A stretch of DNA of 64,000 nt from Spirochaetia bacterium (GTDB lineage: Bacteria > Spirochaetota > Spirochaetia > CAKZLE01). Under the pieces are notes generated by a model. That model was given only the letters and a program-made list of their open reading frames with translations. It had not been told where the DNA came from and did no database searches. This document shows, one piece after another, positions 5,067 to 64,000 of this stretch; the first letter of the stretch is position 1, and the number at the start of each line of letters is the position of its first letter. The DNA lies in contig OY782041.1 of NCBI GenBank assembly GCA_963677595.1, positions 1,056,001 through 1,120,000 on the forward strand. The letters run 5' to 3'. Both the position numbers and the translations under genes were made by a program.

Positions 5067-5228
5067 ATGCACATCCTTTGCATTCAGCAGGTATCTGACC
5101 TGTTGTTTTGCTATATCTTATCATATTAATTATACCTATGCATATTCTTTGCTTTATCACTGTTTATTTCGTACATATCTTGCGTCAACCATATACTATT
5201 CCCTACAATGCAAGAGGAGGAAGTTCCT

Positions 5229-7022: not shown

Positions 7023-7029
7023 GGCTTAA

Positions 7030-7116
7030 CTATACGATATCATCGTATAGTTTTCAATTTTTTTATACGATACCATCGTATACTTTTAGCCATTTCTATA
7101 CGATGTCATCGTATAG
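7030..7116. repeat. Three palindromes TATACGAT-N3-ATCGTATA at 33-bp period upstream of ATPase A
   Basis: Cores start at 7031, 7064 and 7097. Confidence 0.9.
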
Positions 7117-7117
7117 T

Positions 7118-7729: not shown

Positions 7730-7821
7730 GCTGCCTCCTGTCAGGGATGACTATACACGAAAAGCTGGTAATCAGTACAATTAATTATTTACATATTACA
7801 TAAGTTCTACTAATATTACTC

Positions 7822-9277: not shown

Positions 9278-9322
9278 GAGATCAGTATAGACTGCGTGGC
9301 AGTATATGGCAATCTTCCCGTC

Positions 9323-10105
9323 TTAGGTGAACCACCTCACGGTATTGTAGATGCAGAGGATCATGATGATCGCCAGGACTCCCATGAAGAGCTTGTCCAC
9401 TGCCCGGTTCGTCATCCTGTGGGAGATGAACGAACCGGTCAGGCCGCCAGTGATCCCGCCGATGATCATGATGATCAGTGACGCCGGCTCGAACTCGGGC
9501 AGGTTTCCCGAGAGGATGGTGAACAGGAGGTTCGCGACCTGGGAGAAGAAGATGATGAAGATCGAGTTGAGGGCCGCTGTCTTGGAGTCCATGGAGAAGA
9601 AGAAGTAGAGGACTGCCAGGTTGATCGGGCCTCCGCCGATCCCGAGAAAGGAGGCGAAGCCTCCGAGCACCAGCCCGACGAAGATGCTGAAGAGCATGCT
9701 CTTATGGTGCTGGGGCTTGATCTGCTGCTTGAAGATGTAGAAGAGGAGGACCCCGAGGGTGATGATGAAGAGGAAGACAGACTGGGAGATCCCGATGACC
9801 TTGTCATTGCCGAACCCGCTCTTCACCAGGTCGAAGAGGTTCTTCCCGGCAAGCCCGCCGAGGATACCGCCAACTGCCATCATGGAGGTGTTCTTCACGT
9901 TGATGGAGACCGGGCTCTTCCTGCTCCGTATGAGGGAGACCGTCGCCATCGACAGTACCGTGGTGCTCGAGAGGAAGCTGATCGTGGATACCCCGAGACC
10001 GCTGACCACGTCCATGACCGGCTTGATGATGACACCGCCGCCGATGCCGCTGATCGCACCGATGATCGATGCACCGAAACTGATGATGAAGAAGACGAGA
10101 TACAT
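9323..10105 (-). CDS. TauE/SafE (sulfite exporter) family permease
   Basis: Duplicated GIGGG motifs (ISGIGGGVIIKP, FLGIGGGP); about eight TM segments. Confidence 0.85.
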   Translation of the reverse strand: MYLVFFIISFGASIIGAISGIGGGVIIKPVMDVVSGLGVSTISFLSSTTVLSMATVSLIRSRKSPVSINVKNTSMMAVGGILGGLAGKNLFDLVKSGFGNDKVIGISQSVFLFIITLGVLLFYIFKQQIKPQHHKSMLFSIFVGLVLGGFASFLGIGGGPINLAVLYFFFSMDSKTAALNSIFIIFFSQVANLLFTILSGNLPEFEPASLIIMIIGGITGGLTGSFISHRMTNRAVDKLFMGVLAIIMILCIYNTVRWFT

Positions 10106-50015: not shown

Positions 50016-50070
50016 ATATCTTTTCCTTATAGAAAATTATATCACAATAAAAATTCTAGTACAAGCCACT

Positions 50071-50214
50071 ACCCGACAGATTCATTAACTTCAATCCGAC
50101 AGATTCATTAACTTCAATCCGACAGATTCTTTAACTTCAACCCGACAGATTCTTTAACTTCAACCCGACAGATTCTTTAACTTCAACCCGACAGATTCAC
50201 TAATCTCAACCCGA
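50071..50214. repeat. Six and a partial tandem copies of the 23-bp unit AYCCGACAGATTCWTTAACTTCA upstream of ATPase E
   Basis: Units at 50071, 50094, 50117, 50140, 50163, 50186 and a partial at 50209. Confidence 0.95.
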
Positions 50215-50222
50215 TAATAGCA

Positions 50223-51332
50223 TCACCCAAGAAGGTACTGCAGATTCAACTGGTAGGATACCGAACGACCTCTTGCATCACTCTGTGTCAGCACCTGCTT
50301 GAAAACCAGATCTGCAAGATCACGTTTTGCTGTTTCCCGGCTGGTCTTAGTAATCGAGACGTAATTCCTGTTTGTCAGTCCACCGGTATACGGTTCAGGA
50401 TAGATATCGATCAGTTTCCTGATCACTTTCTGCTGTCTCTCATTCAATGAAAGACTGTTGATCCGTGCATACATCCTTGCAACGTGTTCAACACGCAGGA
50501 ATACCTTCTGAGATGCATCGATCGCGCTGCTCATCATATCAATGAAAAAGACGATCCAATCAGTGACATCAAGATCCCCTTGCTGCATGCTTTCCAGCAC
50601 AGCATAATACTCCGTTCTCTGCTGCAGGATCGATTGAGACATCGCATATCCCCTTGTACCGGTATGCTCATCCTGAGCCAAGGCAAGATCGGAGAGTAAT
50701 CTTGCCAATCTGCCATTGCCATCTGAGAATGGGTGAATCGAAACGAACCAAAGATGCGCAAGGGCTGCCCTGATGATCCCATCTGGAACAGCATCCGGGG
50801 TATTCCACCACCTGAGAAACCGTTCCATCTCTTCGGGAACTCGTTCAGAGGGCGGGGCCTCATAATGGATGACTTCATGCTTCAATGACCCCGATATGAT
50901 CTGCATCTGTTCATGAATACCTCTCCACCAGCCAACGGTGACCCTATAAGGTCCGGAATAGCCCGTGGGGAACAGTGAAGCCTGCCAACTACACAACTTC
51001 TCCGATGTCAACGGTTGTCTAAACCCCTTCATGGCATCAAGTAATGCAGCCACGAACCCGTCTCCTTCCCGTGGGGAAGGAAGCCCTGCTGTTGGAAGAC
51101 CAAGCCTCCTAGCGATGGAAGACCTGATCGATAACGGATCCAACGGTTCATCCTCTATCAATGAGGAACTTACGATCTCATTCTCCAACAGGAATCCTTC
51201 TTCGCGGAGTCCCAAAGATGGTAAACGGGCAAGAAGATTCCCTTGTTTTCTCCGAACCTGTGAGAGGCTAGGGAGAATCCTCTCCGCATCCCAGGTAAAT
51301 CCCGGCCAAGCTTTTTGTTCCCATATATACAT
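50223..51332 (-). CDS. Fic family protein (DUF4172-Fic-HTH)
   Basis: MYIWEQ..WP.F.WD, SSLIE.E, HPFSDGNGRLAR, TA.RDL.DLV. Confidence 0.9.
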   Translation of the reverse strand: MYIWEQKAWPGFTWDAERILPSLSQVRRKQGNLLARLPSLGLREEGFLLENEIVSSSLIEDEPLDPLSIRSSIARRLGLPTAGLPSPREGDGFVAALLDAMKGFRQPLTSEKLCSWQASLFPTGYSGPYRVTVGWWRGIHEQMQIISGSLKHEVIHYEAPPSERVPEEMERFLRWWNTPDAVPDGIIRAALAHLWFVSIHPFSDGNGRLARLLSDLALAQDEHTGTRGYAMSQSILQQRTEYYAVLESMQQGDLDVTDWIVFFIDMMSSAIDASQKVFLRVEHVARMYARINSLSLNERQQKVIRKLIDIYPEPYTGGLTNRNYVSITKTSRETAKRDLADLVFKQVLTQSDARGRSVSYQLNLQYLLG

Positions 51333-51344
51333 GCATGACTCCAC

Positions 51345-51407
51345 CTGACCCAATTAATCTACTTTTTGGGTCATTATCTGACCCAATTATACCTGTTAAT
51401 CGAGTCA
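51345..51407. repeat. Operator-like repeats upstream of fic
   Basis: CTGACCCAATTA at 51345 and 51378 (33-bp period); inverted TTGGGTCA at 51366. Confidence 0.7.
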
Positions 51408-51495: not shown

Positions 51496-52224
51496 ATGCT
51501 GTTGGAAGATAGAGTAGCCCTGATCACCGGAGCAGGGAGGGGAATAGGCAAGGCCATCGCCCTGAAGTTCGCTGAAGAAGGGGCAAAGGTAGTCCTTACA
51601 GGACGCAACGCTGCTGTCCTCGGGGAGGTCGTCCGGGAGATCACGCAGAATGGCGGGGACGCCTTCAGCGTCACCGGCGACCTGCGGGATGCAGACCAGG
51701 TTGCCTCCATCCTCAAGAGTGTCCTGGAGCAGTACGGGAGACTCGATATCCTCGTGAACAATGCGGGCATCTCAAAGGAGATGAAGCTCATCCACATGCC
51801 CATGGAGGTCTGGGATGAGATCCTGGAGGTGAACCTGCGGACCGTCGTCCTGATGACCAAGGCAGTGCTGCCCATCTTCAAGAGCCAGGGAGGGGGGAAT
51901 ATCATCAATATCGCATCAGCTGCAGGGTTGCGGGGACTTCCCGGCAGTTCCGCCTACTCAGCCTCGAAGGCAGCGGTATTGGGCCTGACGCAGGCCCTCG
52001 GCGATGAGCTTCGCCCAGACAAGGTCCGGGTGAATGCGATCTGCCCGGGACCGGTCGATACGGAGATGTTCCAGACCTCCGAGCGGCGGCAGTTCATCCT
52101 CGATGCCGGGGGAGACCTCTTCGAGCCCGAGGATGTTGCGAACGGGGCCCTCTACCTCGCCTCCGACATGTCAAAGGGCGTGAGCAGCCAGACCCTCACC
52201 CTCCGGGGGTTCAACCGCTGGTAG
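51496..52224 (+). CDS. Short-chain dehydrogenase/reductase
   Basis: TGAGRGIG, NNAG, S...YSASK, CPGPVDT. Confidence 0.93.
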   Translation: MLLEDRVALITGAGRGIGKAIALKFAEEGAKVVLTGRNAAVLGEVVREITQNGGDAFSVTGDLRDADQVASILKSVLEQYGRLDILVNNAGISKEMKLIHMPMEVWDEILEVNLRTVVLMTKAVLPIFKSQGGGNIINIASAAGLRGLPGSSAYSASKAAVLGLTQALGDELRPDKVRVNAICPGPVDTEMFQTSERRQFILDAGGDLFEPEDVANGALYLASDMSKGVSSQTLTLRGFNRW

Positions 52225-53290
52225 GCTGAAAGAACCGGATGCACACAGGGGAACCTGTCTCCACCTGGTTCACCAAGGCAAGTGAGCCATCCTCCTCGAT
52301 CCTGAACACACTGACCGTATCGCTGTCCTGGTTCCCGACGAGCAGGTACTCCCCTGCCGGGTCGATGGCAAAGTTCCTGGGGGTCCGTCCCCCGCAGGGC
52401 TGGCAGGAGATGAGGGAGAGGCTCCCGTCCCCCTCAACCCGATAGCCCGTGATGCTGTCATGGCCCCGGTTGGAGGCATAGAGCCTCTTCCCATCGGGTG
52501 TCAGGTGCAGATCGGCACAGGTACTCTCACCGGTGAAGTCCCCAGGCAGGGTACTCACTGCCTGCAGCTCTTCCAACCTTCCGGCTGCATGACGGTAGAC
52601 GATGACCTGGGAGGTAAGCTCATTGACGAGGTAGAAGAACCTGCCGTCACTGCTGAACTCCCCGTAACGCGGCCCATTTCCTGCAGGGACCGTAACTCCC
52701 AGCGAGGTATTGGGCACGATCTTCTCGCCAGGGAGGTCATAGGCGACTATCCGGTCAAGGCCCAGGTCAGCCACATAGAGCAGCTCATCCGCGAAGATAC
52801 AGCTGTGGGCATGGGGTTCGGTCTGCCGTTCGGGATGCACGCTGCGTCCCTCATGCTGGAAGACAGTCCTCCCCTCGCCGATGATGTTCCCATTCTCATC
52901 CAGGCCGAAGGTCGTAACCGACCCGCTGGAATAGTTCGCGATCGCGATGAGGTCCTTTCCAGGAGACACGGCGATATGGCAGGGATCCTTCCCCCCGGTG
53001 CACCAGGTCCCCTCTACGGTGAGGCTTAGGTCTTTATCATAGGAGAGCTCGGTCACCCCGCCGCCTTCTGACCCAAGGTACTCCTTCAGCTCATTGACGG
53101 CATAGATCCGCTTCCGTGATTCATCGACACAGACGAAGGAAGGGTTCGGTATCGCCAGTTCCTCGATGACCTCTATCTCCCCATCCTCGAACGAGCAGAT
53201 AGTGACTCCTCTGCCCTTCCCCTGGTACACCTCACCGGTACCGAAGAGGATGGGTTCCGTATATGATCCCATAACCATATACTGTTTCAT
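52211..53290 (-). CDS. pgl: 6-phosphogluconolactonase-like (7-bladed propeller lactonase)
   Basis: GSYT, NPSF, DPCH, ANY..GS, PHAH, GPR, SNRGHDS, PRNF, GNQDS. Confidence 0.85.
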   Translation of the reverse strand: MKQYMVMGSYTEPILFGTGEVYQGKGRGVTICSFEDGEIEVIEELAIPNPSFVCVDESRKRIYAVNELKEYLGSEGGGVTELSYDKDLSLTVEGTWCTGGKDPCHIAVSPGKDLIAIANYSSGSVTTFGLDENGNIIGEGRTVFQHEGRSVHPERQTEPHAHSCIFADELLYVADLGLDRIVAYDLPGEKIVPNTSLGVTVPAGNGPRYGEFSSDGRFFYLVNELTSQVIVYRHAAGRLEELQAVSTLPGDFTGESTCADLHLTPDGKRLYASNRGHDSITGYRVEGDGSLSLISCQPCGGRTPRNFAIDPAGEYLLVGNQDSDTVSVFRIEEDGSLALVNQVETGSPVCIRFFQPTSG

Positions 53291-53481: not shown

Positions 53482-55839
53482 ATGGAAAATCTGATTATGA
53501 CCGAACGGATAGCCTCATTGAAGGCACATATGCTCAGCGAACCGAGATACATGTCCCTGGAACAGGCCCGGATCATCACGGACAGCTACCGTGAACATGA
53601 GGGGGAGAGCAAGGCCTTGAAGCGTGCCTACAGCCTGGCTGCATCCCTCGAGAAGATGGAGATCAGGATAGACCCCCTCGAGCTGATAGTCGGCAACAGG
53701 ACCCCCGGGGTCAGGGCGGGAGTCGTCTTCCCCGAAGCCGGGAGCTCATGGATAAATGACGAGATCGAGACGCTCCCGACACGCCCCCAGGACAAGTTCA
53801 ATGTCAGGCCGGAAGATATCGACGCCTTCAGGAATGATATCTACCCCTATTGGGAAGGAATATGTCTTGAGGATGTCATCAGGGAAAAGATCGGGCCTGA
53901 GGTAAGTGACATCGCGAAGGTCGCGAAGATCAACCAGAAGGACCATGCCCAGGGCCATATCTGCCCCGACACTGAGAAGTGGCTGCTCACCGGACCTGCC
54001 GGGCTCAAGGCTGCAGCCGAGGCGAAGCTCGCTGCAGCTCCTGAAGACCAGAGGGAGTTCTACAGGAGCCTCATCATCACCCAGGACGGCGCTGTACGCT
54101 TCATGCAGCGCTATGCTGAACTGGCAGGGACCATGGCTGACAGGGAGCCTGATGAAGGAATCGCTGAGAACCTGCGGGAGGTCTCCCGGATCTGCCGGAA
54201 GCTCTCAACCACCCCGCCTGAGTCATTCCATGAAGCCCTGCAGTCGCTCTGGTTCCTCTATGTGATCCTCCAGATGGAGTCGAATGCCTCCTCCTTCTCC
54301 CCGGGCAGGGCAGACCAGTACCTCTACCCCTATTACCAGGCAGATATCTCCTCAGGCATCATCGATGACCAGGAGGCACTGGAACTGATCGAAGCCCTCT
54401 GGCTGAAGTTCAACCAGATCGTCTACCTGAGGAACTCCCACAGCGCGAAGTACTTCGCAGGCTTCCCCATCGGGTTCAACATCGCCTGCGGGGGGCAGGA
54501 TGAGCATGGCAATGATGCCGTGAACGAACTGTCGTTCCTCTTCCTGAAAGCCCAGAGCCATATCTTATTACCTCAACCCAACCTCTCCGCCCGCCTCTAC
54601 TCCAGGTCTGATGAGCAGTTCGTCGACGAGTGCAGCAGGGTCATCGGGCTCGGCAGCGGGATCCCCCAGGTGTTCAATGATGAGGGAGTCATCCCGGCAC
54701 TGATGAACGTCGGGATCGAGGAGAAGGATGCCCGCGACTATGCCATCGTCGGCTGTGTTGAGCTCACTACCCATGGGAACAACCTCGGCTGGAGCGATGC
54801 AGCCATGTTCAACCTCATGAAAGCACTGGAGCTTACTCTCACCGACGGGGTCTGCCTGCTGACCGGCCGTGAGATGGGCCTCAAGGCAGGAACCCTGGAA
54901 GATTATACGAGCTATGAAGAGCTGGAAGCTGCTTTTGCCAGGCAGCTCGATCATTACATCGGGCGCATGATCAGAAGCTGTGAAGTAGTGGACCGGACCC
55001 ATGCGGAGGTACTTCCTTCCGCATTCCTCTCGAGTGTCATCGATGACTGCATCGAGAAGGGCTTGGACGTGACAGCAGGCGGGGCCTACTACAACCTCTC
55101 CGGGATCCAGGCCATCCAGGTAGCGAACCTGGCTGACAGCCTCGCGGTATTGAAAGAGCTCGTATTCGAGAAGGGAAAGATCTCAAGAACCGAGCTGCTG
55201 CAGGCGCTGCAGACCGACTGGGACGGGAAGGAATCCCTCAGGCAGACCGTCATCCACAAGGTCCCGAAATACGGGAATGACGTCGCATGGGTCGATACCC
55301 TGGGCAACCAGTGGGTCGAGTACTTTGCATCAAAGCTCGGGGAATACACCAATGTCAGGGGCGGTGCCTACCATACCGGGCTCTACACCGTATCCGCACA
55401 CGTCCCCATGGGGCAGAACGTCGGGGCATCCCCTGACGGGCGGCACGCACAGGAACCACTGGCAGACGGAGGCGTCTCGGCCATGTACGGCAGGGACACG
55501 AACGGCCCCACAGCCCTGCTGAACTCAGTAGCGCGCGTGAACTCCAAACTCGGCAGCAACGGCACCCTGCTCAACATGAAGTTCCTGCCAGAGTTCTTCC
55601 AGACTCGTGAAGGGATCAAGAAGTTCTCCTCACTGCTCCGTACCTTCGTGAAGCTGAAGATCAACCATATCCAGTTCAACGTCCTGCGGAAGGAAGACCT
55701 GATCGCGGCCAAGAAGGACCCGGAGAAGTATTCCAGCCTCACAGTCAGGGTAGCCGGTTATACCGCCTACTTCACCGAACTGGCCGGGGACCTCCAGGAC
55801 GAGATCATCGCCAGGACCAGCTATGGAGAGGGAATGTGA
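53482..55839 (+). CDS. Glycyl radical enzyme, PflD-like clade
   Basis: Single-Cys loop VGCVEL, Gly loop RVAGY; TRPQD, QGH, ESNASS, YFAGFP, LPQPNL, YTVSAHVP, NGTLLN recall E. coli PflD. Confidence 0.9.
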   Translation: MENLIMTERIASLKAHMLSEPRYMSLEQARIITDSYREHEGESKALKRAYSLAASLEKMEIRIDPLELIVGNRTPGVRAGVVFPEAGSSWINDEIETLPTRPQDKFNVRPEDIDAFRNDIYPYWEGICLEDVIREKIGPEVSDIAKVAKINQKDHAQGHICPDTEKWLLTGPAGLKAAAEAKLAAAPEDQREFYRSLIITQDGAVRFMQRYAELAGTMADREPDEGIAENLREVSRICRKLSTTPPESFHEALQSLWFLYVILQMESNASSFSPGRADQYLYPYYQADISSGIIDDQEALELIEALWLKFNQIVYLRNSHSAKYFAGFPIGFNIACGGQDEHGNDAVNELSFLFLKAQSHILLPQPNLSARLYSRSDEQFVDECSRVIGLGSGIPQVFNDEGVIPALMNVGIEEKDARDYAIVGCVELTTHGNNLGWSDAAMFNLMKALELTLTDGVCLLTGREMGLKAGTLEDYTSYEELEAAFARQLDHYIGRMIRSCEVVDRTHAEVLPSAFLSSVIDDCIEKGLDVTAGGAYYNLSGIQAIQVANLADSLAVLKELVFEKGKISRTELLQALQTDWDGKESLRQTVIHKVPKYGNDVAWVDTLGNQWVEYFASKLGEYTNVRGGAYHTGLYTVSAHVPMGQNVGASPDGRHAQEPLADGGVSAMYGRDTNGPTALLNSVARVNSKLGSNGTLLNMKFLPEFFQTREGIKKFSSLLRTFVKLKINHIQFNVLRKEDLIAAKKDPEKYSSLTVRVAGYTAYFTELAGDLQDEIIARTSYGEGM

Positions 55840-56771
55840 CGGGACGAATCTTCGATACCAAGAAATTCGCCGTACACGACGGCCCCGGGATCAGGACCAC
55901 ACTCTTTCTCAAGGGCTGCCCCCTGGGCTGCATCTGGTGCCATAACCCGGAAGGGATCACTGACACCATCAACCTCTGGTATTTCGGGAATAAGTGCATC
56001 CAATGCAGGAGCTGTATTGCCGTATGCCCGAAGCAGGCACTTACCGCCGATGAAGGGGGATCACCCTTCATCCGGATCGACCATGACCGGTGCGACCGGT
56101 GCGGGATCTGTGTGGAGGAATGTCCCACGACAGCCCTCGCCTTCGATGGCTATGACCTGTCTGTCGAGGAGGCGGTCACGACCCTCCTGCAGGACCGGGA
56201 GTTCTATGCACAGTCCGGCGGGGGTATCACCCTCTCTGGGGGAGACCCCCTCTTTCAGCCCGAGTTCGCACGGGAAGTGCTATCAGCATGCAAGGCACAG
56301 GGCATCCACACCGCCATGGAGACCTCGATGCAGGCGGAGGAGGAGGTGCTTAACGGTTTCATCGGCGTCGTCGACCTCTTCATCGTCGACCTGAAGATCC
56401 TTGATGCGGCTGCCCATAGGAAGTATACGGGAAAGGACAACTCACAGATCCTCTCCAACTTCCGCATGCTCGCCCGTTCCGGAGGAGCCATGTTGGTCCG
56501 CATCCCGCTCATCCCAGGTATGACCGCGACAGAGGAGAATATCAGGGGGATCGCCCGCTTCGTGAAGCGGGAAGCCCCGGGCCAGGCTATCGAACTGATC
56601 AACTTCAACCCCTTGGCGATCAATAAATACCGACTCATGGATATGAGACGCGAAATCCTGGAGCCGATGACACCATACAGCGAATCTGAGCTGGATGGAT
56701 TCTACCGGATCCTGGAAGATGAAGGAGTCCCCGTGATCAGGGAGACCGAGGCATCCAAACAAGAAGCATAA
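55836..56771 (+). CDS. Glycyl-radical enzyme activating enzyme (radical SAM with ferredoxin insert)
   Basis: HDGPGIRT, CPLGCIWC (CX3CX2C), CIQCRSC...CP and CDRCGIC...CP, GGITLSGG. Confidence 0.93.
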   Translation: MTGRIFDTKKFAVHDGPGIRTTLFLKGCPLGCIWCHNPEGITDTINLWYFGNKCIQCRSCIAVCPKQALTADEGGSPFIRIDHDRCDRCGICVEECPTTALAFDGYDLSVEEAVTTLLQDREFYAQSGGGITLSGGDPLFQPEFAREVLSACKAQGIHTAMETSMQAEEEVLNGFIGVVDLFIVDLKILDAAAHRKYTGKDNSQILSNFRMLARSGGAMLVRIPLIPGMTATEENIRGIARFVKREAPGQAIELINFNPLAINKYRLMDMRREILEPMTPYSESELDGFYRILEDEGVPVIRETEASKQEA

Positions 56772-56785
56772 GGGAGGAGATACCC

Positions 56786-58597
56786 ATGATTTCAACATTC
56801 CTTACCAGGGCACATGAAGGCCGGCCCGTGTATATCAGCACTGCCCATGAGGCCTTCGAGGACCTCGAAGACGGGCGGACCATCCATTGCCTGCTGAGCC
56901 TGCTCGATGAGGGGAAGCAGCGGTACTTCCCGATACGCATCCCCTGCTTCGGTGAATCCGAAGAAGCTGACACCTTTATCAGTGAATATGTCTGGGCAGA
57001 ACTCTACAACATCATCTCAAGCCTCGGCGGCAGGAAGATGGACCTGTACATAGACTGGGAAGATTCACAGCTCGTGAAGTTCTGCCGGGACCTGTCAGGA
57101 GTGTTCGGCATAGATGCAAGCAGGAACGGACGACGTGGGTATGGACGGGCAGTCAATGTGAATGACAGGATGCTCGAGACCCTCGCCCCGGAATCAGACG
57201 GTTTCCATTTCGAGGTACACCCACTCTCCCTGCTCCCGGAGATACCCGGGTCCGGAGATATGACGTCCCCTGACCTCAGCATATTCACCACCGTGACTGA
57301 ACACCTGGAGGGCAAGACCATCTGCGGGATCGATGTGGGCGGCACCGACATCAAGATGGTCCTCGTGCAGGACGGCAGGATCCTGTGCTTCAAGGAGTAC
57401 GACTGGTTCCCGGCGCTCTTCACCACCTCGAAGGAGCTGGTAGACCCCATCCTCCTCCTGGTCAGGCTCATGCGGGCAGTCGCCACGCTCGCAGCCTGTG
57501 ACCCGTCAGCAGAGAAGGACCTGCTCCTGTCCCGACAGGGACAGGCACTGCATATAGCAGCGGATGAAGAGGCTATGCTTACATTCTGCTCCGATGTGGA
57601 GCAGATCGCCGCAGGGCAGATCATCAAGCTCGATGCGATCGGCATGTGTTTCCCCGATGTGGTGGTCCGGAACAAGATCGTCGGCGGTGAGGTCTATAAG
57701 ACCCGTGGGATCAGGAACAACCCTGCTATCGACTATGAATCAGATTTCAGGACCCTGACCAACCTGAACGATCGTCTTGCCGAGTACGTCGGGGATGTTG
57801 GCAATGTCCATATCATCAACGACGGCCCGATGGCCTCCTTCACTGCAGCTGTGGAGATAGCCGCCTCGGAGAACCCAGGGCTGATCGCCAACGGAGTGTT
57901 CGCCCATACCCTGGGGACCGAGCTGGGAACCGGCTGGGTCGATGAGGATGGATCCATCCCCGATATCCCGCTCGAAGTCTACAACTTCATCATCGACCTT
58001 GGGAGTTATGGGGAACGGGCATACCATCCGGATGACCTGCGGAGCCTCAACAACTTCAACACCGGCTTACCGGGCACACTGCAAAAGTATGCGAGCCAGA
58101 GCGGCATCTTCCGGCTGGCCATGAAGTATTTCCCGACCGAGAGACCCGATCTCTTCGCTGAACTCCTGGAGGGGGGATTCGTCCGGGAGTCCGTGATCGA
58201 TGGGAAACCGGCATACATCGTGCCTACTGAGCCGGATGATATGAGAAAGCCCTTCCTGGAGCATATGATGTCCCTCCCCGAACGGGAAGGTGATGAGGTG
58301 AATGAGCGTATCTGGAAAGAGCTCGGCGAGTTCCTGGCGGTTACCTGGCTGGAGACGAAGAAGATACTCGACCCGGCCGCAGGGGCCCGGACCATGTTCG
58401 GGAGACTGGTAAAACGAAAACGCTGTTTCGACCTGATGGTAGAGGGAGCGCGGTCGATCAAGGATGACATCATCTTCGAGATAGCCGATTCGACCCTGGC
58501 GAACACCCCGCTGATGAAGGAACTGGAAGCTGATCCCCATTTCACGGTCGCCCAGTTCGCACAGGCGATCGGTGCCGTCTATTTTGCCAACCGCTGA
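56786..58597 (+). CDS. Divergent ROK/ASKHA-fold kinase-like protein with a ~170-aa N-terminal extension
   Basis: GIDVGGTDIK, IINDG, TLGTELGTG, LQKYASQSG, AQAIGA match ROK motif order. Confidence 0.65.
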   Translation: MISTFLTRAHEGRPVYISTAHEAFEDLEDGRTIHCLLSLLDEGKQRYFPIRIPCFGESEEADTFISEYVWAELYNIISSLGGRKMDLYIDWEDSQLVKFCRDLSGVFGIDASRNGRRGYGRAVNVNDRMLETLAPESDGFHFEVHPLSLLPEIPGSGDMTSPDLSIFTTVTEHLEGKTICGIDVGGTDIKMVLVQDGRILCFKEYDWFPALFTTSKELVDPILLLVRLMRAVATLAACDPSAEKDLLLSRQGQALHIAADEEAMLTFCSDVEQIAAGQIIKLDAIGMCFPDVVVRNKIVGGEVYKTRGIRNNPAIDYESDFRTLTNLNDRLAEYVGDVGNVHIINDGPMASFTAAVEIAASENPGLIANGVFAHTLGTELGTGWVDEDGSIPDIPLEVYNFIIDLGSYGERAYHPDDLRSLNNFNTGLPGTLQKYASQSGIFRLAMKYFPTERPDLFAELLEGGFVRESVIDGKPAYIVPTEPDDMRKPFLEHMMSLPEREGDEVNERIWKELGEFLAVTWLETKKILDPAAGARTMFGRLVKRKRCFDLMVEGARSIKDDIIFEIADSTLANTPLMKELEADPHFTVAQFAQAIGAVYFANR

Positions 58598-58600
58598 TAC

Positions 58601-59344
58601 TCAATGACTCTTGCGGAAATACCCCGGCGGGACATTCAGGGCCTTATGGATGACCCGCGAGAGGTTGTACTCATTGCTCATACCGCAACTCTGGGCGATC
58701 TCCTTGAGTGAGAGGTCCGTGGAGATGATCAGGTCTCGGGCCCGCTCCACACGGAGGACCCTCACCTCCTCCATCGGTGTGATACCGGTATGCTTCTTGT
58801 ATTTACGCAGGAACGTGTACTTGTTCATCCCGAACGCCCCAGCCAGGGACTCAAGGGTGATCTTCTGAGCCAGGCGTTCGGCGATATACCCCTTTACCTT
58901 CGGCACGAACGCATCCTGCTGTTCATGTTCATACAGGTTCCGCTCGACCTCGTCGAGCAGGGTCTGCATCAGATTGTCCTCGGTATTCTCCTGATTGCGG
59001 TAGAGGGAGTTCTTGTTGTCTGACAACAGCCAGTCAGCCATGATCCTGACCCGTCCCCTCCTGTCATGCATGAGCGGGGGGAACTCCAGCTCAGGGCCGG
59101 TCCAGTCCAGGTAGATGATCTGTGTTTGCTGGTCAGTGAGGTTCTCTTCCTGATGGGGTATGTCACAGTCGTAATAGACGATATCGCCTGTCCCTGCGAT
59201 GAAATCCCCCTCCGGCATCGTGACAGAGAGGGATCCCTTATAGACGATGATCATCTGGTAGAAGCTGTGGCTGTGAAGCTTCCTCAGCCATCCCGGAGGA
59301 CAGGCTACCTCTCCCCCATTGAAGAACATGAATTCATTCATCAT
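58601..59344 (-). CDS. AraC family regulator
   Basis: LHSHSFYQ cupin; C-terminal LSLKEIA..CG. Confidence 0.88.
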   Translation of the reverse strand: MMNEFMFFNGGEVACPPGWLRKLHSHSFYQMIIVYKGSLSVTMPEGDFIAGTGDIVYYDCDIPHQEENLTDQQTQIIYLDWTGPELEFPPLMHDRRGRVRIMADWLLSDNKNSLYRNQENTEDNLMQTLLDEVERNLYEHEQQDAFVPKVKGYIAERLAQKITLESLAGAFGMNKYTFLRKYKKHTGITPMEEVRVLRVERARDLIISTDLSLKEIAQSCGMSNEYNLSRVIHKALNVPPGYFRKSH

Positions 59345-59363
59345 ACGACCATGCCGCTTGGGA

Positions 59364-59385
59364 GACGGCAGCGGAAGCTGCCGTC
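59364..59385 (-). terminator. Hairpin after the ABC operon
   Basis: GACGGCAGC-ggaa-GCTGCCGTC. Confidence 0.5.
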
Positions 59386-59396
59386 ACTTCCCAGCC

Positions 59397-60350
59397 CTAC
59401 ACGAGTTCACGCTTTCGCTTCCGGCTGTAGCTGTCAAGACTGAGGATCGCTACCATGACGACACCGCGAAGGATGATCTGCAGGTAGGAATCGAGTCCCA
59501 GCATGTTCATCGCGTTCTGCATGACCGCGAATACCAGGAGCCCGAGCATGGTCTTCGTGACGCTCCCGACACCTCCGGCAAGCGACGTACCACCTACCAC
59601 GATACCGCTGATCACCGTCAGAGCCGTGGTATCACCGTAGATCGAGGAACCGGAGTTCAGCTTGGAAGAGAGCATGACTCCCCCGAAGGCCGCTGCCAGT
59701 CCGCAGAGCACGTATGCGCTGGCCTGGATCTTCAGGACATCGATACCGGAATACTCAGCGACTTCATAGTTCCCGCCGATCGCATACATATTCCTGCCGT
59801 AGCTGGTGAAGCGCAGCAGGTAGAAGAAGATCGCGAAGATGACGAGCATGATGAGGATCAGGTTGGGTATGTGTCCTGCGACACGTCCATTCCCGATCAT
59901 CATGAACTTGAGGCCCTCAGCCGGCAGCGGATGCGCATCAGTGAGCTGCTGTGCGAGACCGGTCAGGACCAGACTCATCCCGAGCGTGACTACAAGCGGC
60001 TCGGTCTTCTGGTAGACGATGATGTAGCCGTTGATCGCCCCGATGAGGCCGCCTGTGAGGACTGCCAGCACAATAGCCAGCCAGATAGGCAGGAAGGCCA
60101 TCAGCTTGATGGTCAGGATCCCAGCGATCACGAGCGTCCCGCCGATGGAGAGGTCGATACCGCCGGCAATGATGACGATCGTGATCCCGAAGGCGACGAT
60201 CATCAGGATCGATGCTGAGTTCATCAGCTCCATGAGGTTGAAGACGGAGTAGAAGTTCGTGGGGAAAAACAACATCAGGAACATCATGGCCAGGACCGCG
60301 ATCAGCGCTTTCTGGTTTGATGCAAAACGAAGTATAGATTTCTTTTTCAT
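59397..60350 (-). CDS. Sugar ABC transporter permease (RbsC type)
   Basis: GGIDLSIG, T.YGR..YAIGGN...A..SG, VVGGTSL.GG.G. Confidence 0.92.
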   Translation of the reverse strand: MKKKSILRFASNQKALIAVLAMMFLMLFFPTNFYSVFNLMELMNSASILMIVAFGITIVIIAGGIDLSIGGTLVIAGILTIKLMAFLPIWLAIVLAVLTGGLIGAINGYIIVYQKTEPLVVTLGMSLVLTGLAQQLTDAHPLPAEGLKFMMIGNGRVAGHIPNLILIMLVIFAIFFYLLRFTSYGRNMYAIGGNYEVAEYSGIDVLKIQASAYVLCGLAAAFGGVMLSSKLNSGSSIYGDTTALTVISGIVVGGTSLAGGVGSVTKTMLGLLVFAVMQNAMNMLGLDSYLQIILRGVVMVAILSLDSYSRKRKRELV

Positions 60351-60360
60351 GATACGCCCC

Positions 60361-61317
60361 TTATTGTGTTTTCCGGTTATCGAGCCAGATAGCCAGCATG
60401 AGCAGCAGCCCCCGCATGACATTCTGCATGTACACGGTAACTCCCAGCAGGTTCATACAGTTGGAAAGCAGTATGATCAGCAGCGTACCGAGCACGGTAC
60501 GTGCGACGCTGCCCCTGCCCCCCGAGAGGCTGGAACCACCGACGACAACAGCCAGGATGGCGTTCAGCTCGAACCCGGCCCCAAGAGTCGGGGATGCCGT
60601 GGTGACCCTGGTGAATAGGATGATGGACCCGACAGCGGCCATCAAGCCGGAGATCATGTAGATCATCATGATCGACCTGGAGATCGAGACACCGGCGAAC
60701 TTCGCGGCCGTCTTGTTCCCGCCCAGCAGGAAGATCTCCCGGCCCATCCGCGTGAATTTCTGGAATATGAACAGGATCACGAAGATCCCCAGGAAGATCA
60801 CGAACGAAGCCGAGAAGAACCCGATGGTCGCCGTCCCGATATAGGTGAAGAGGCTGTAGCTGACCGTGAGATACGACAGGTGTTCGGTGACACCCCCAGT
60901 ATACATCAAGGCTGCCCCGCCGTAGACCGTACTCATCCCGAAGGTGATGAACAGGGCCTCAGCCTGCGTGGTAGCCCCGCTGACGATGATGATCCCGCTG
61001 TTGAGCAATCCCGCAAGGGCCCCAAGACCCAGGCCCGCGATCAGTGCGCCGACCTGCCCAAAGGGTTCTATGAGCGAGAGGGTCACAGCCGCGATGAACG
61101 ACATGATCCCGGCCACTGAGAGGTCCAGGAACCCGCCGATGATGACGAAGGTCATACCCATAGCGACCATGATCAATGGGCCGAACTGCCTCATGATATT
61201 CGTGATGTTCCCGGTCGTGAGGAACTTCGGTTCCACGATGGAGGTGATGACCACCAGGACCAGGATCAGCATCAGTACAAGATATTCGCGTACGATACGG
61301 CTAAGTTTATTCATCAT
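60361..61317 (-). CDS. Sugar ABC transporter permease (RbsC type)
   Basis: GMTFVIIGG.LDLSV, GGN..AA..AG, ELNAILAVVVGG. Confidence 0.92.
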   Translation of the reverse strand: MMNKLSRIVREYLVLMLILVLVVITSIVEPKFLTTGNITNIMRQFGPLIMVAMGMTFVIIGGFLDLSVAGIMSFIAAVTLSLIEPFGQVGALIAGLGLGALAGLLNSGIIIVSGATTQAEALFITFGMSTVYGGAALMYTGGVTEHLSYLTVSYSLFTYIGTATIGFFSASFVIFLGIFVILFIFQKFTRMGREIFLLGGNKTAAKFAGVSISRSIMMIYMISGLMAAVGSIILFTRVTTASPTLGAGFELNAILAVVVGGSSLSGGRGSVARTVLGTLLIILLSNCMNLLGVTVYMQNVMRGLLLMLAIWLDNRKTQ

Positions 61318-62819
61318 AGGGCGACCCCTGCTTTCTCGCTTTCCAATGCCTTCTCCATGATCTCCTCTACCGGCGTCGTGCTCGGGTCGAACTCACCGGT
61401 GATCCTGCCTTCGTTTATCGTCAAGACCCTGTTGCTCATATTCAGTACCTCAGGCAGCTCCGATGAGATCAGGATGACTGCCCCGCCCTCCTCGACGATC
61501 TGCTTCATGAGCAGGTATATCTCATACTTCGCACCGACATCGATTCCCCTGGTAGGTTCATCCATGATCATGATGCGCGGTGCCAGCTCCATCCATCGAC
61601 CGACGATGCACTTCTGCTGGTTCCCGCCGGAGAGGGAGTTGACCACGGTCTTCAATGACGGCGTCTTGATGGAGAGGGCCTTCACATGGTTCTCCGCGAT
61701 CGCTGTCTCAACGCTCTTCTTCAGGAAGCCTTTCGGGAAGATCTTCTCAAGGCTGGCGATCCCGATGTTCATCTCAACGGTGAACGGGAGCACAAGGCCC
61801 TGCTGTTTCCGGTCCTCCGGAACCAGGCCGATCCTGTAATCCATGGCATCCCTCGGGCCGTTGATCTGGGCAAGCTCCCCGTCGATATAGACCTCGCAGG
61901 ATTTGACATGATCCGCACCGAAGATAGCCCTGACGATCTCCGTACGGCCGGAACCGACCAGGCCCACGAACCCAAGTATCTCTCCCTTGTGAAGCGAGAA
62001 GGAGACATCCTTCAGCTTTATCGAGTTGAGGTTCTTCACCTCGAAGAATACTTCCCCGATGTTGTGGGGGCGTGCGGGGAACTCGTTCTCGATGGTCCGC
62101 CCGACCATCATGGAGATCATCTCCCGCCTGGTGATCTCACCGATGGGCTTGGACCCCACGACGTTTCCGTCTCGCATGACGGTGACTGCATCGCAGAAGT
62201 CGAAGATCTCATCGAGCTTGTGGCTGATGTAGATGATCGAGATGCCCTGGCTCTTCAGGTGGTGAATGATCTCAACGAGCTCCTTCATCTCATCCTGGGT
62301 CAGGCTGCTCGACGGCTCATCCATGATGATCAGCTTTGAATCGAAGGATAGCGCCTTCGCGATCTCCACCATCTGTTTCTGGGAGACACTCAGCTCATCG
62401 ACGAGGACACGGGTATCGATGTTAGTCCCGATACTGTCCAGCATCTTCCGGGCATTCTCATGAGTGCCCCGCATCCCGCCCTGTTCAGCGAAACGGCCGA
62501 GATAGATGTTCTCCCCTACCGTCATCGTATTCACCAGGTTGAGCTCCTGGTAGATGATCGACAGTCCGAGAGCCATCGCCTGGGAGGGGGAGACAGATTT
62601 CAGCTCCTGCCCATCAAAGATGATCGTCCCTTCATCACGCTTATAGACTCCTGACAGGATCTTCATCAGGGTGGACTTCCCTGCACCGTTCTCCCCGACG
62701 ATCCCATGTACCGTCCCGCGCTGTACCGTGATCGAGACCTGGTCCAGTGCTTTCACACCCGGAAAGGACTTACTGACTTTCTCCATGTGGAGGATTGTAT
62801 CATCAGAAATAGAACCCAC
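61314..62819 (-). CDS. Sugar ABC transporter ATP-binding protein (RbsA type, two NBDs)
   Basis: GENGAGKST, DEP, PEDRK, LSGGNQQK, DEPTRGIDVGAK. Confidence 0.94.
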   Translation of the reverse strand: MGSISDDTILHMEKVSKSFPGVKALDQVSITVQRGTVHGIVGENGAGKSTLMKILSGVYKRDEGTIIFDGQELKSVSPSQAMALGLSIIYQELNLVNTMTVGENIYLGRFAEQGGMRGTHENARKMLDSIGTNIDTRVLVDELSVSQKQMVEIAKALSFDSKLIIMDEPSSSLTQDEMKELVEIIHHLKSQGISIIYISHKLDEIFDFCDAVTVMRDGNVVGSKPIGEITRREMISMMVGRTIENEFPARPHNIGEVFFEVKNLNSIKLKDVSFSLHKGEILGFVGLVGSGRTEIVRAIFGADHVKSCEVYIDGELAQINGPRDAMDYRIGLVPEDRKQQGLVLPFTVEMNIGIASLEKIFPKGFLKKSVETAIAENHVKALSIKTPSLKTVVNSLSGGNQQKCIVGRWMELAPRIMIMDEPTRGIDVGAKYEIYLLMKQIVEEGGAVILISSELPEVLNMSNRVLTINEGRITGEFDPSTTPVEEIMEKALESEKAGVAL

Positions 62820-62845
62820 TGTTCGCTACCCCCTTTTGCGTAGGT

Positions 62846-62873
62846 AGAGATGGTCCATTACTGGACCATCTCT
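62846..62873 (-). terminator. Intercistronic hairpin after the binding-protein gene
   Basis: AGAGATGGTCCA-ttac-TGGACCATCTCT 12-bp stem. Confidence 0.6.
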
Positions 62874-62908
62874 TACATAGTCTTACATGCTTTCTAACAG
62901 GCTGGATC

Positions 62909-63859
62909 CTACCACTCAGGTGCAGTAAAGGAATCGATGTTGTTCAGGTCGACTGCGTCGAGCGGGATGAAGTTGATCTTCTCGACGGTCTTCCCGGCAA
63001 GCACGTCCTTGGCAAGCTGCAGTGACTGCTTGGTCATGTTCTCGAAGTTCTGCATGATGGTAACACTCTGCCATCCGTCACGTACCTGCTGGAATCCTGC
63101 CCTGTTGCCATCTACACCGATGATATAGAGCTCTTTGTTGAGATTGGCAGCCTGTACGGCATTGATGATACCGGTCACGCCGTTATCCCAGTGGCAGAAG
63201 ATACCGTCGATCTCTGTACCGTACTTGGTGATCATATCCTCAGCGATAGCAAGAGCCTGGTCGGTTGCCCACTGCTGGCATGCCTTGTAGTCCATGTTGA
63301 TGATGTTGGTCCCGGCGATGACCTCGTTGAAGCCGTCATGCCGTTTGATCTGTGCATCATGACCAGCCTGACCGCCGATCTCGACGATCTTCGCACCGTT
63401 GGGGAAGTGGTCGATGAATGCCTGGGCAGCAGTCTGTCCTGCCATCGTATCGTTGACGCCAACGAAGAAGTCACGGATCTCTGCACTTGCTGCAGGAAGG
63501 TCGGAAGAGTACATCCCAACGACCAGTCCGGCCTGCTTTGCCTGCATAAGACTCGGGATGATCGCATTGATGTCATTCGGGTTCACGAAGACTGCCTTGG
63601 CCTTCATGGCGATCGCGTTGGAGACCGCAGCAGCCTCCTTCTCAGCATTCCCCTCTGCATCAAGGATGCTCACATCAAACCCGTACTCGGGTCCATACTT
63701 CTCGAACATTCTTGACGAGAACGCCTGTGACTCATTCTTCATATCAGCTGCAACGAACACGATCTTAGGATTGCCTGCGGCCTCCTGGCTTCCTGCTGCG
63801 AACAGCACAGCCCCGATACTCAACAGTACCAGTACCATAGCAATGATTCTTTTCATCAT
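62909..63859 (-). CDS. Sugar ABC transporter substrate-binding protein (RbsB/Peripla_BP_4)
   Basis: Signal peptide ...LFAAGSQE; R..GF, W, HWD, GVDG, T..Q; GGAGG RBS. Confidence 0.92.
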   Translation of the reverse strand: MMKRIIAMVLVLLSIGAVLFAAGSQEAAGNPKIVFVAADMKNESQAFSSRMFEKYGPEYGFDVSILDAEGNAEKEAAAVSNAIAMKAKAVFVNPNDINAIIPSLMQAKQAGLVVGMYSSDLPAASAEIRDFFVGVNDTMAGQTAAQAFIDHFPNGAKIVEIGGQAGHDAQIKRHDGFNEVIAGTNIINMDYKACQQWATDQALAIAEDMITKYGTEIDGIFCHWDNGVTGIINAVQAANLNKELYIIGVDGNRAGFQQVRDGWQSVTIMQNFENMTKQSLQLAKDVLAGKTVEKINFIPLDAVDLNNIDSFTAPEW

Positions 63860-64000
63860 TTCCTCCATTTTTTTAGATACTTCTTTTTTTACCGATGTTC
63901 TCGTACGGATACCGATGAGCACCAGCCGGCGAAGTATCCACCCTTTTTTTCCGGATAGGTGATCAACGATCAGGTTGTATCCGGCTCTATAATCTATCAT

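Follow-up and report, generated by a model that had tools for sequence, protein, structure and literature searches.

Which sugar does a cluster of a glycyl radical enzyme (GRE), its activase, a ROK-like kinase and a sugar ABC importer take up, and by what chemistry would it be degraded? We studied such a cluster in a window of 64,000 nucleotides (the whole stretch of DNA that was analysed) and in the locus adjoining it. A radical route for the breakdown of anhydro-sugar alcohols in E. coli was reportedly described in 2024. Our analysis suggests, with a probability of about 0.55, that the cluster serves a PTS-free anhydroglycolysis, with entry through the ABC importer and a kinase, ring opening by the oxygen-sensitive GRE of an anaerobe and exit through a thiamine/lipoate complex with a fused E1 that resembles pyruvate dehydrogenase.

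Gene organization of the cluster

All eight ORFs of the cluster are intact at the positions noted earlier. The features are as follows.

52211..53290, minus strand: lactonase, seven-bladed propeller, divergent from the GRE (Pfam)
53482..55839, plus strand: GRE-A, glycyl radical enzyme of 785 aa (Pfam, NCBIfam, alignment, tree)
55836..56771, plus strand: GRE activase, radical SAM, CX3CX2C and two ferredoxin motifs (TIGR02494)
56786-58597, plus strand: 603-aa protein, whole ORF
56786..57295, plus strand: N-terminal domain of the 603-aa protein, about residues 1-170 (confident model)
57296..58597, plus strand: predicted ROK-fold sugar-kinase domain of the 603-aa protein, about residues 175-603 (fold and residues)
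58601..59344, minus strand: AraC-family regulator (Pfam)
59397..60350, minus strand: monosaccharide ABC permease 2 (Pfam, NCBIfam)
60361..61317, minus strand: monosaccharide ABC permease 1 (Pfam, NCBIfam)
61314..62819, minus strand: monosaccharide ABC ATPase, two nucleotide-binding domains (Pfam, NCBIfam)
62909..63859, minus strand: sugar-binding protein (Pfam; comparison with binding proteins of PflD operons)
63860..64000, no strand: first part of the intergenic region between this cluster and the divergent operon past the window end (locus L002)

The GRE and activase ORFs overlap by 4 bp, and the AraC gene on the minus strand converges on the gene of the 603-aa protein with a gap of 3 bp. 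The importer carries PF13407, PF00005 twice and PF02653 twice (binding protein, double-domain ATPase and two permeases), a domain content that marks it as a monosaccharide system of the RbsABC type; its genes all score under the cut-offs of the NCBIfam models for named sugar systems. The lactonase is an occasional neighbour, found in 3 of 58 long kinase loci.

The eight intact ORFs and the Pfam/NCBIfam families of all but the 603-aa protein bear out the preliminary description, which had seen a GRE-activase-ROK-like kinase operon converging on AraC and a four-gene ABC system. Of the 60 kinase loci whose upstream sequence spans 3.5 kb or more, 55 encode a GRE-A ortholog, so the arrangement goes beyond chance; 3 of the 60 have no GRE. 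GRE, kinase and ABC genes occur together.

GRE-A forms a sister clade of PflD

The catalytic residues of GRE-A are Cys425, Glu427 and Gly759, and the enzyme has the glycyl radical signature (G759 in RVAGY, C425; PF02901 and PF01228) and a dedicated adjoining radical SAM activase (TIGR02494, CX3CX2C). C425 and E427 are kept in 98 of 98 clade members; the Cys/Glu feature tested here is given in PMC13450708 as a mark of GRE isomerases and 1,2-eliminases. GRE-A is 43% identical to E. coli PflD and 35% to YbiW, and its best solved relatives are two PflD structures (658 and 637 bits), with glycerol dehydratase third (589 bits). The PflD equivalog model NF007437 gives it a score of 787.7, under the cut-off of 1109. 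In a GRE tree built without glycerol dehydratase, HypD and CutC, the GRE-A clade is separate from the PflD clade (support 100/100), and GRE-A with three basal sequences is the sister of PflD (99/96), on a long GRE-A stem branch of 0.56 changes per column. Common to both enzymes are H159, S270, S271, R317, F328, C425, E427, D439 and Y635, and seven substitutions between GRE-A and PflD are fixed in active-site segments (H155/K152, Y315/L309, F332/Y326, N333/T327, W437/L431, S438/H432 and Q546/G526). The score under the equivalog cut-off, the sister clade and these substitutions support the view that GRE-A is not simply PflD.

Three GRE motifs quoted in the preliminary description were located at start residues 150, 326 and 424, and the E. 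coli PflD counterparts given there are correct on comparison. Its picture of an enzyme like PflD yet distinct in active-site segments holds for the seven fixed substitutions but not for K153 of INQKDH, which is not diagnostic (K in 61 of 98 and T in 37 of 98 clade members).

The 603-aa protein

The 603-aa protein has no match in Pfam or NCBIfam. Its N-terminal domain (~170 aa, pLDDT 92.3) gave no Foldseek hit at E<=0.001 and no clear fold match by Z score (best 4.8). The model of the remaining part has the two-domain ROK/hexokinase fold, aligning with 2aa4 at Z 20.1 and rmsd 2.9 over 282 residues (VIA-align) and with 2QM1 at a Foldseek E of 3.6e-10. The ROK catalytic residues D183, T187, N345, D346, T378 and E397 are kept, with DxGxT reading D183-V-G-G-T187; they are the equivalents of NagK D6, T10, N104, D105, T132 and E154, whose roles are given in PMC10031466. 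Among 172 members of the kinase family, D183 is conserved in 171, N345 in 169, D346 in 170, T378 in 169 and E397 in 169.

The ROK signatures are DxGxT, the catalytic Asp, ExGH and a zinc motif (PMC5458393). The ExGH histidine is missing (E397-V-Y-N400, with N in 137 of 172), and so is the zinc motif CxCGxxGCx(E/D), the site having no cysteines in the 603-aa protein. Since NanK of F. nucleatum also has no zinc site (PMC5458393), this loss lowers ROK membership more than function. The position of the acid that binds the sugar 1-OH is Q433 (Gln in 148 of 172), and several Arg/Lys near the sugar-site motifs are conserved in the family, which has at least 1,279 clusters. Loci without a kinase of the 603-aa type can have a ROK or PfkB kinase in the slot (L140, L144, L169, L107, L109). 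The 603-aa protein is quite probably the entry kinase.

The adjoining operon past the window

The divergent operon of locus L002 encodes a further GRE.

L002 1268-2251, plus strand: ROK kinase (Pfam)
L002 2275-4698, plus strand: YbiW ortholog (Pfam, NCBIfam, identity comparison)
L002 4664-6262, plus strand: GMC oxidoreductase (Pfam)
L002 6259-9953, minus strand: DeoR, second activase, Gfo/Idh/MocA protein and RPE-like epimerase

The preliminary description, confined to the window, covered neither this operon nor the fate of the GRE product. The YbiW ortholog is 56% identical to YbiW and has its own activase, and YbiW shares the locus with a 603-aa-type kinase in 13 of 58 long loci. Of 22 distinct motif hits among the zinc-type ROKs of such loci, 21 have Met or Ile at the 1-OH acid position, and the three other motif-bearing ROKs of the genome have Glu there. 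Both locus kinases, the 603-aa protein and the L002 ROK, are without an acid to grip the sugar 1-OH; if the proposed reading holds, its loss suggests a simple sequence marker for anhydro-sugar kinases. The L002 ROK kinase and YbiW ortholog would carry out the same two steps, phosphorylation and ring opening, on 1,5-anhydroglucitol.

Exchanged neighbourhoods of GRE-A and PflD

A sugar different from that of PflD, as was proposed earlier, is now less well supported: GRE-A occurs in a PTS and aldolase setting, true PflD occurs in an ABC and kinase setting, and no co-occurrence of the two was found in the tested genomes. GRE-A orthologs with the same motifs adjoin a Frw-type PTS and an aldolase (L134, L150). 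The PTS IIC is 52% identical to E. coli FrwC, and the aldolase has the FSA (fructose-6-P aldolase) residues Q59/K85/Y131/R134, whose roles are given in PMC13259622. Through these orthologs GRE-A is found in a context of sugar phosphorylation and 1-deoxyfructose-6-P cleavage. True PflD (69-70% identical to E. coli, every motif kept) lies in operons with the content ABC-GRE-activase-GMC-kinase-shikimate-DH-like-YbiU (L019, L073). The binding proteins of these operons are 63% identical to that of the window and unchanged at the conserved positions, and the kinases and the binding proteins of the PflD operons fall within the groups linked to GRE-A, with support of 1.0 and 0.93. Of 50 kinase genomes, 6 have true PflD; five of these six were searched, and GRE-A was not found in them.

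The PflD-with-kinase cases come from one betaproteobacterial lineage (with stops in two of six matches), the PTS-with-GRE-A cases from two contigs that are almost identical, and those GRE-As that have an aldolase but no kinase from one clade, so each swap counts as about one event. Other neighbours of some GRE-A members are GatZ (L169), a GH4 glycosidase and lyxose isomerase, the last beside the genome's own paralog. Rather than a new sugar, the likely substrate is a 1,5-anhydroalditol, with anhydromannitol the most likely form.

Proposed exit through a fused-E1 complex

FSA was not found in this genome (nor were Frw genes), and we therefore predict that a fused-E1/E2/E3 complex encoded elsewhere treats the ring-opened product as an acyloin and cleaves it. 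Acetoin dehydrogenase cleaves small acyloins by such chemistry (PMC3744081). The operon (G000:C1:2064163-2069386, order E2-E3-E1) lies ~950 kb from the GRE locus, with rhamnulokinase-, SorE- and SrlD-like genes. The fused E1 of 817 aa falls short of every NCBIfam cut-off, and the search for solved structures gave no close one; the E1 alpha and beta domains (PF00676, PF02779, PF02780) were assigned on the L175 homolog. LipA/LipB homologs for lipoylation are in the genome.

The fused E1 is found in 46 of 50 kinase genomes (those that are related do not count as independent), and no match was found in the other 4; the background is 13 of 301 genomes of the same phylum and 81 of 399 Clostridia, and E. 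coli K-12 has none. Since the E1 operon carries other sugar genes, part of the 46 of 50 may reflect sugar-rich genomes. E1 is linked to GRE genes without deoxy-sugar partner genes at L058, L175, L237 and L228/L229. An FSA-type gene is present in at least 5 kinase genomes and was not found in most. The co-occurrence makes exit of 1-deoxyfructose-6-P through this complex fairly likely.

Proposed pathway and alternatives

Gene anatomy, folds, residues and co-occurrence were observed, and from them we infer all of the substrates and reactions that follow. A 1,5-anhydroalditol, most likely 1,5-anhydromannitol, would enter through the ABC system and receive a phosphate at C6 from the 603-aa ROK-fold protein. 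Activated GRE-A would then open its ring in the manner of PflD, yielding 1-deoxyfructose-6-phosphate, and the fused-E1/E2/E3 complex would cleave this to acetyl-CoA, NADH and erythrose-4-phosphate. The first three steps (ABC import, phosphorylation, radical ring opening) agree with the preliminary description and are supported by the kinase fold, its catalytic residues and the co-occurrence of GRE, kinase and ABC genes. We hold with good confidence that GRE-A would open an anhydroalditol-6-P, and the anhydromannitol form specifically is slightly favoured. Against the scheme weigh the low equivalog score, the seven fixed substitutions, the other neighbours of some GRE-A members, the kinase loci that have no GRE, the distant E1 operon, and the kinase genomes with no E1 match or with an FSA-type gene.

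GRE-A might follow the same scheme on another sugar, i.e. a C3/C4 epimer such as 1,5-anhydrogalactitol- or talitol-6-P (giving 1-deoxytagatose-6-P), a 1,4-anhydro form or an imino-sugar, which would be a new GRE activity. The fixed substitutions and the long stem branch fit this, as do GatZ, the lyxose isomerase and the RPE-like epimerase (6 of 58 long loci), and on stereochemical grounds it is the tagatose-type compound that the E1 operon, in its fucose-linked form, would encounter. However, FSA requires the fructose configuration at C3/C4 and members with identical motifs adjoin FSA-signature aldolases, PflD can stand in for GRE-A while the binding protein and kinase stay the same, and no tested genome was found to carry both clades; we regard another sugar as a possible but minor option. 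It is unlikely that the cluster represents a second full architecture of radical glycolysis, in which a new GRE clade acts on an anhydro-sugar phosphate unusable by PflD and YbiW, the kinase working with the ABC importer belongs to a new family whose N-terminal domain is unclassified, and the E1 exit from 1-deoxy-ketohexose-6-phosphate to acetyl-CoA and tetrose phosphate is a hitherto undescribed hub shared with fucose and rhamnose across several anaerobic phyla.

An alternative role of the 603-aa protein could be to act after the GRE on the deoxy-ketose, or to help the activase or GRE in an ATP-dependent way through its N-terminal domain. The kinase avoids FSA as strictly as it avoids PTS (among 50 evaluable GRE-selected loci, 27 have the kinase, 15 FSA and 2 both), an activase-kinase fusion exists (P0319, 901 aa, two member sequences), a separate ROK is found in 17 of 58 long kinase loci, and the loss of the ExGH histidine and zinc site and the conserved Arg/Lys point the same way. 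Such a role is nevertheless quite improbable given the full phosphotransfer residue set, a fold nearest to sugar kinases (Z 20 vs Z 11 for dehydratase activator), the 41 of 58 long loci with no other ROK although ABC import delivers unphosphorylated sugar, and the ROK or PfkB kinases that fill the same slot elsewhere. We consider it very improbable that GRE-A is a polyol(-phosphate) dehydratase of the glycerol dehydratase type, removing the C1 hydroxyl of an open-chain hexitol phosphate: the isomerase PflD is both the characterised enzyme nearest to it and the sister of its clade, it pairs with YbiW, and it aligns Ser270 with a His of glycerol dehydratase, even though that enzyme is the third-best solved relative and shares a Trp two residues before the conserved Asp, and an open-chain hexitol likewise has no anomeric OH.

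If the PTS-free anhydroglycolysis is true, the pathway of Spirochaetota, Clostridia, Myxococcota, Actinobacteria and Betaproteobacteria would begin and end differently, and acetyl-CoA and NADH would be conserved where the described route releases hydroxyacetone. It would also offer candidate substrates for three protein groups, i.e. the GRE clade, the kinase family and the fused-E1 complex.

Comparison with known systems

PMC12441222 and PMC13450708 describe anhydroglycolysis as a route of gut bacteria that is fed by a PTS and ends with an aldolase. PflD is a 1,5-anhydromannitol-6-phosphate C-O lyase/isomerase (reaction in section 5.7 of PMC13450708), with structures from E. coli (8YJO) and a homolog (8ID0). 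The pflD cluster of E. coli K-12 is frwCB-pflDC-frwD / fsaB / gldA; PTS genes had earlier been placed beside both PflD and YbiW, which is right for pflD but not for ybiW, where a stretch of 13 kb contains fsaA, ybiV and ybiU but no PTS gene. GRE-A resembles PflD in the Cys/Glu loop, the Gly loop, most residues of the active-site segments, its own activase and the interchangeable neighbourhoods, whereas it is only 43% identical, belongs to a sister clade with seven fixed substitutions, and has an ABC importer and kinase in place of the PTS, in a genome where FSA and Frw were not found.

YbiW (1,5-anhydroglucitol-6-phosphate isomerase, 8ID7) has its 56%-identical ortholog and activase in the same locus, just past the window, but GRE-A itself is 35% identical with other motifs, and the ortholog adjoins a ROK kinase without the 1-OH acid instead of fsaA. 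Residues 175-603 share the fold, DxGxT, Asn-Asp, GT and the Glu of ExGH with the ROK kinases NagK (7P7W), NanK (2AA4) and glucokinase (3VGK), whereas the 603-aa protein adds a 170-aa domain and insertions, has E-V-Y-N for ExGH, no zinc cysteines and Gln at the 1-OH acid. The acetoin dehydrogenase AcoABCL, which cleaves CH3-CO-C(OH)R acyloins to acetyl-CoA and a carbonyl (PMC3744081), likewise has thiamine E1 alpha and beta domains, E2, E3 and lipoate genes, but here the E1 subunits are fused and the predicted substrate is a deoxy-ketohexose phosphate.

Organization of the locus

The eight window genes have intact open reading frames and are arranged as the preliminary description set out. The glycyl radical enzyme GRE-A (53482-55839, 785 aa), its activase and a 603-aa protein (56786-58597, the kinase below) follow in this order on the plus strand; the first two overlap by 4 bp and the last two are 14 bp apart. 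AraC, two permeases, an ATPase and a binding protein (62909-63859) are encoded on the minus strand, facing the kinase end. Pfam and NCBIfam uphold the family calls for every gene except the 603-aa protein. The locus extends beyond the window end, into the stretch L002 (G000:C1:1119001-1139000 of the same genome).

Genes beyond the window end (L002 coordinates)
1268-2251, divergent from the binding protein: ROK kinase
2275-4698, same divergent operon: second GRE, YbiW ortholog (954 bits to 8ID7; 56% to E. coli YbiW)
4664-6262, same divergent operon as the ROK kinase and second GRE: GMC oxidoreductase
6259-9953, opposite strand to GMC: DeoR, second activase, Gfo/Idh/MocA protein, RPE-like protein

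The closest kinase loci come from spirochaete MAGs. Promoter and terminator scans of the sequence did no better than shuffled ones (8 vs 7.8 and 7 vs 8.7). A perfect short hairpin lies at ~62846-62873, between the binding-protein and ATPase genes; hairpins at such positions can boost binding-protein mRNA levels. A short-chain dehydrogenase gene (51496-52224, +) overlaps the lactonase end and has no homolog of at least 40% across 58 long kinase loci. We also observed a tandem repeat at ~50048-50231 with a 23-bp period and ~7-8 degenerate copies, flanked by an ATP-binding-like gene (48738-50015, -) and a Fic/DUF4172 gene (50223-51353, -); its core motif has a single site genome-wide.

GRE-A and its relatives

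The best solved relatives of GRE-A are E. coli PflD (658 bits), the homolog 8ID0 (637) and glycerol dehydratase (589). GRE-A is 43% identical to E. coli PflD and misses the PflD equivalog cut-off of NCBIfam (787.7 vs 1109). The loci and searches yielded 207 GREs, of which 157 remained after reduction at 93% identity; these went into a FastTree tree and a 29-row subset into a second tree by IQ-TREE, both without glycerol dehydratase, HypD and CutC. The IQ-TREE supports are 100/100 for GRE-A, 96/95 for GRE-A plus three basal relatives and 100/99 for PflD; the GRE-A group and PflD join at 99/96, with YbiW separate. Between 98 GRE-A and 16 PflD rows, 182 positions are shared and conserved and 26 are fixed differences, seven of which fall in active-site segments (GRE-A/PflD: H155/K152, Y315/L309, F332/Y326, N333/T327, W437/L431, S438/H432 and Q546/G526). 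At ~266-274 and ~435-442, part of the conservation among the metagenome rows follows from their selection by two motif patterns; the same invariants recur in a 120-row alignment chosen by similarity. By these sequence tests GRE-A is not a member of PflD. According to PMC13450708, PflD and YbiW turn 1,5-anhydromannitol- and 1,5-anhydroglucitol-6-phosphate (AM6P/AG6P) into 1-deoxyfructose-6-phosphate (DF6P) via a CXE motif, and phosphorylation by the PTS precedes this step (PMC12441222).

The genome encodes two further GREs. One, at G000:C1:3508732-3511143 (L085:9732-12143), is a paralog that shares 60% identity with GRE-A and has Thr at 330 and Asn at 270. Its neighbours encode two PfkB kinases, a D-lyxose isomerase, an amidohydrolase and a different sugar ABC system, and the paralog is a candidate for another substrate. 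The other, at G000:C1:4057058-4059421 (L086), has its own activase and a CSE Cys loop, and is highly divergent (~32% to PflD and YbiW, on a long branch). In two other loci a GRE basal to PflD (L081:2942-5320 and L122:5616-7967) adjoins a GRE-A-kinase module; it has Cys-Val-Gln in place of Cys-Val-Glu, and possibly has other chemistry or is inactive.

The 603-aa protein

Pfam, NCBIfam and single-sequence PDB searches give this protein no name. Its homologs form at least 1,279 clusters, those listed being almost all unnamed, with 321 representatives at 50% identity; it is present in 2 of 301 genomes of its own phylum. In the predicted model (pLDDT 90.3) residues 175-603 resemble ROK sugar kinases (Foldseek E 3.6e-10; Z 20.1, rmsd 2.9, 282 aligned), and the Atlas assigns the protein toward a ROK cluster at 0.94, PF00480 occurring in 43% of the cluster members. 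An electron-transferase role driven by ATP was also considered, since a profile search reached the 2-hydroxyglutaryl-CoA dehydratase activator at E 0.0024; we ranked it low because sugar kinases are far ahead in the fold search and the activator's cysteines are unaligned. The N-terminal domain (residues 1-170) is modelled confidently (pLDDT 92.3); alone it gave nothing at E<=0.001 in Foldseek and a best Z of 4.8, which is not proof of a new fold. One lineage has a natural fusion of an activase and a ROK-fold protein (P0319, 901 aa; two member sequences).

The residues with metal, phosphate, base and 3-OH roles in NagK have counterparts that are retained across 172 sequences: D183 in 171, T187 in 150, N345 in 169, D346 in 170, T378 in 169 and E397 in 169. 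The roles of the NagK residues, including D187 gripping the 1-OH, are taken from PMC10031466. The ExGH His has mostly become Asn in the family and the zinc cysteines are lost (the motif as defined in PMC5458393); NagK D187 is taken to be the acid closing this motif. Q433 occupies the position of the 1-OH acid by profile alignment (probability 95.4), where Gln is found in 148, Arg in 17 and an acidic residue in 5 of the 172. Among the ordinary ROKs of the loci, 21 of the 22 distinct motif hits have Met or Ile at this position; L146 is the exception, and the hits are not independent as the loci are related. The genome's three other motif-bearing ROKs have Glu. The loss of the 1-OH-binding acid in the locus kinases fits a sugar lacking the C1 hydroxyl. 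By the tests applied, the 603-aa protein is not a canonical ROK member.

Partners of GRE-A and the kinase

We compared the best 80 of 205 kinase relatives from a genome scan. GRE-A is present in 55 of the 60 loci with at least 3.5 kb upstream, true PflD in 2 and neither in 3. Among the 58 loci of at least 13 kb we found an ABC ATPase in 42, a close binding protein in 35, a shikimate-dehydrogenase-like gene in 32, ROK in 17, YbiW in 13, GMC in 11, YbiU in 5, fructose-6-P aldolase (FSA) in 1 and FrwC in 0. In the reverse direction, 50 of 80 metagenome loci chosen by GRE, many being near-identical gut contigs, had sufficient downstream sequence: 27 carry the kinase, 15 FSA, 2 both and 10 neither. 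The FSA of the two loci with both belongs to an adjoining YbiW module. GRE-A thus has the kinase as its most frequent, though not invariable, partner. In L140, L144, L169 and the basal L107 and L109, the place of the kinase is taken by a ROK or PfkB kinase. Kinase-family genes of L077, L079 and L080 have no GRE within 10 kb upstream, and their neighbours are sugar-metabolism or unrelated genes. YbiU homologs (Gig2-like, 42-45% to E. coli) and a small HbpS-like protein recur, e.g. in L019, L028, L033, L058, L059, L068 and L073; E. coli has ybiU downstream of ybiW. The shikimate-dehydrogenase-like gene hinted at a cyclitol substrate, which we set aside because the gene also occurs in PTS-aldolase and true-PflD loci and is absent here.

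GRE-A and PflD have exchanged neighbourhoods in both directions, each amounting to about one evolutionary event. L134 and L150 share the layout of the E. coli pflD cluster with GRE-A in place of PflD, i.e. a PRD regulator, PTS IIA, IIC (52% to FrwC), GRE-A with unchanged motifs and then an aldolase with Q59, K85, Y131 and R134, marks of the FSA active site according to PMC13259622. Conversely, true PflD (69-70%) lies within the ABC-kinase operon in Propionivibrio (L019) and Burkholderiales (L073). The kinases of these two loci fall within a clade of 40 members, otherwise mostly GRE-A-linked (support 1.0), and their binding proteins, 63% to the window's, nest among GRE-A-linked ones (0.93) with every conserved residue kept. 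Of the genomes searched, which are the sources of 50 of the 80 kinase loci, 6 contain true PflD. All six are betaproteobacterial, with internal stops in 2 matches, and GRE-A is absent from all five of these that were searched for it. Both swaps combined suggest that the two clades share the same input and output.

The exit step

FSA was rejected as the exit in this genome (95% complete), which has no tblastn match to E. coli FsaA/B or three relatives and whose three TAL_FSA-family genes are long and without the FSA motif. Frw PTS genes were not found in it either. A short TAL/FSA match occurs in just 17 of the 50 kinase genomes; the 22 matches comprise 5 with the FSA Tyr motif, 6 with the Phe form and 11 left unclassified by the pattern.

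We propose instead a thiamine-lipoate dehydrogenase with fused E1 alpha/beta (the E1 complex). L175, L058 and L184 carry the fused E1 next to GRE-A and the kinase, and L058 encodes on one strand binding protein-ATPase-permeases-AraC-GRE-A-activase-kinase-SDH-like-GMC-E2-E3-E1-YbiU. An activase beside YbiW precedes E2-E3-E1 in L237, and E2-E3-E1 with lipoate genes lies ~20 kb from the GRE-A-kinase genes in L228/L229. Of the 50 kinase genomes, 46 encode the fused E1, as do 13 of 301 own-phylum genomes (both kinase carriers among them) and 81 of 399 Clostridia (including 5/5 with GRE-A or PflD), counts that include kin and hence are not independent; a search of E. coli K-12 found none. Acetoin dehydrogenase cleaves a CH3-CO-CH(OH)-R grouping to acetyl-CoA and a carbonyl (PMC3744081); DF6P has this grouping, and by analogy it would be split into acetyl-CoA and erythrose-4-P.

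Against this exit, the genome's own copy (G000:C1:2064163-2069386) is ~950 kb off in a deoxy-sugar-type operon, the type of most E1 neighbourhoods examined:

L227:8376-19572 (G000:C1:2063376-2074572): DeoR-E2-E3-fused E1-PHP-like-SrlD-like-SorE-like-rhamnulokinase-like

Here the PHP-like and SorE-like labels are ones we assumed on reading; the operon is probably a deoxy-sugar route without aldolase. The GRE-linked copies (L058, L175, L237, L228/L229) lack PHP, SrlD, SorE and rhamnulokinase partners in the sequence examined around them.

Proposed pathway and comparison with anhydroglycolysis

Building on the observed anatomy, folds, residues, trees and co-occurrence, we propose that the ABC system would import a 1,5-anhydroalditol, which would next be phosphorylated at C6. 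Cys425 would then abstract at C2 as a radical, with Glu427 acting as base, cleavage of the ring C-O bond would yield DF6P, and the E1 complex would cleave DF6P oxidatively. Plausibly, though this is conjecture, the GMC, Gfo/Idh/MocA, shikimate-dehydrogenase-like and RmlD-like proteins would interconvert anhydrofructose and the two alditols.

The literature searched, to which the primary 2024 anhydroglycolysis paper and its supplement did not belong, does not describe the kinase, the GRE clade or the exit step; ABC/kinase variants may already be reported in that paper or supplement. The system would work like anhydroglycolysis, but its GRE lies outside PflD and its kinase outside the canonical ROKs.
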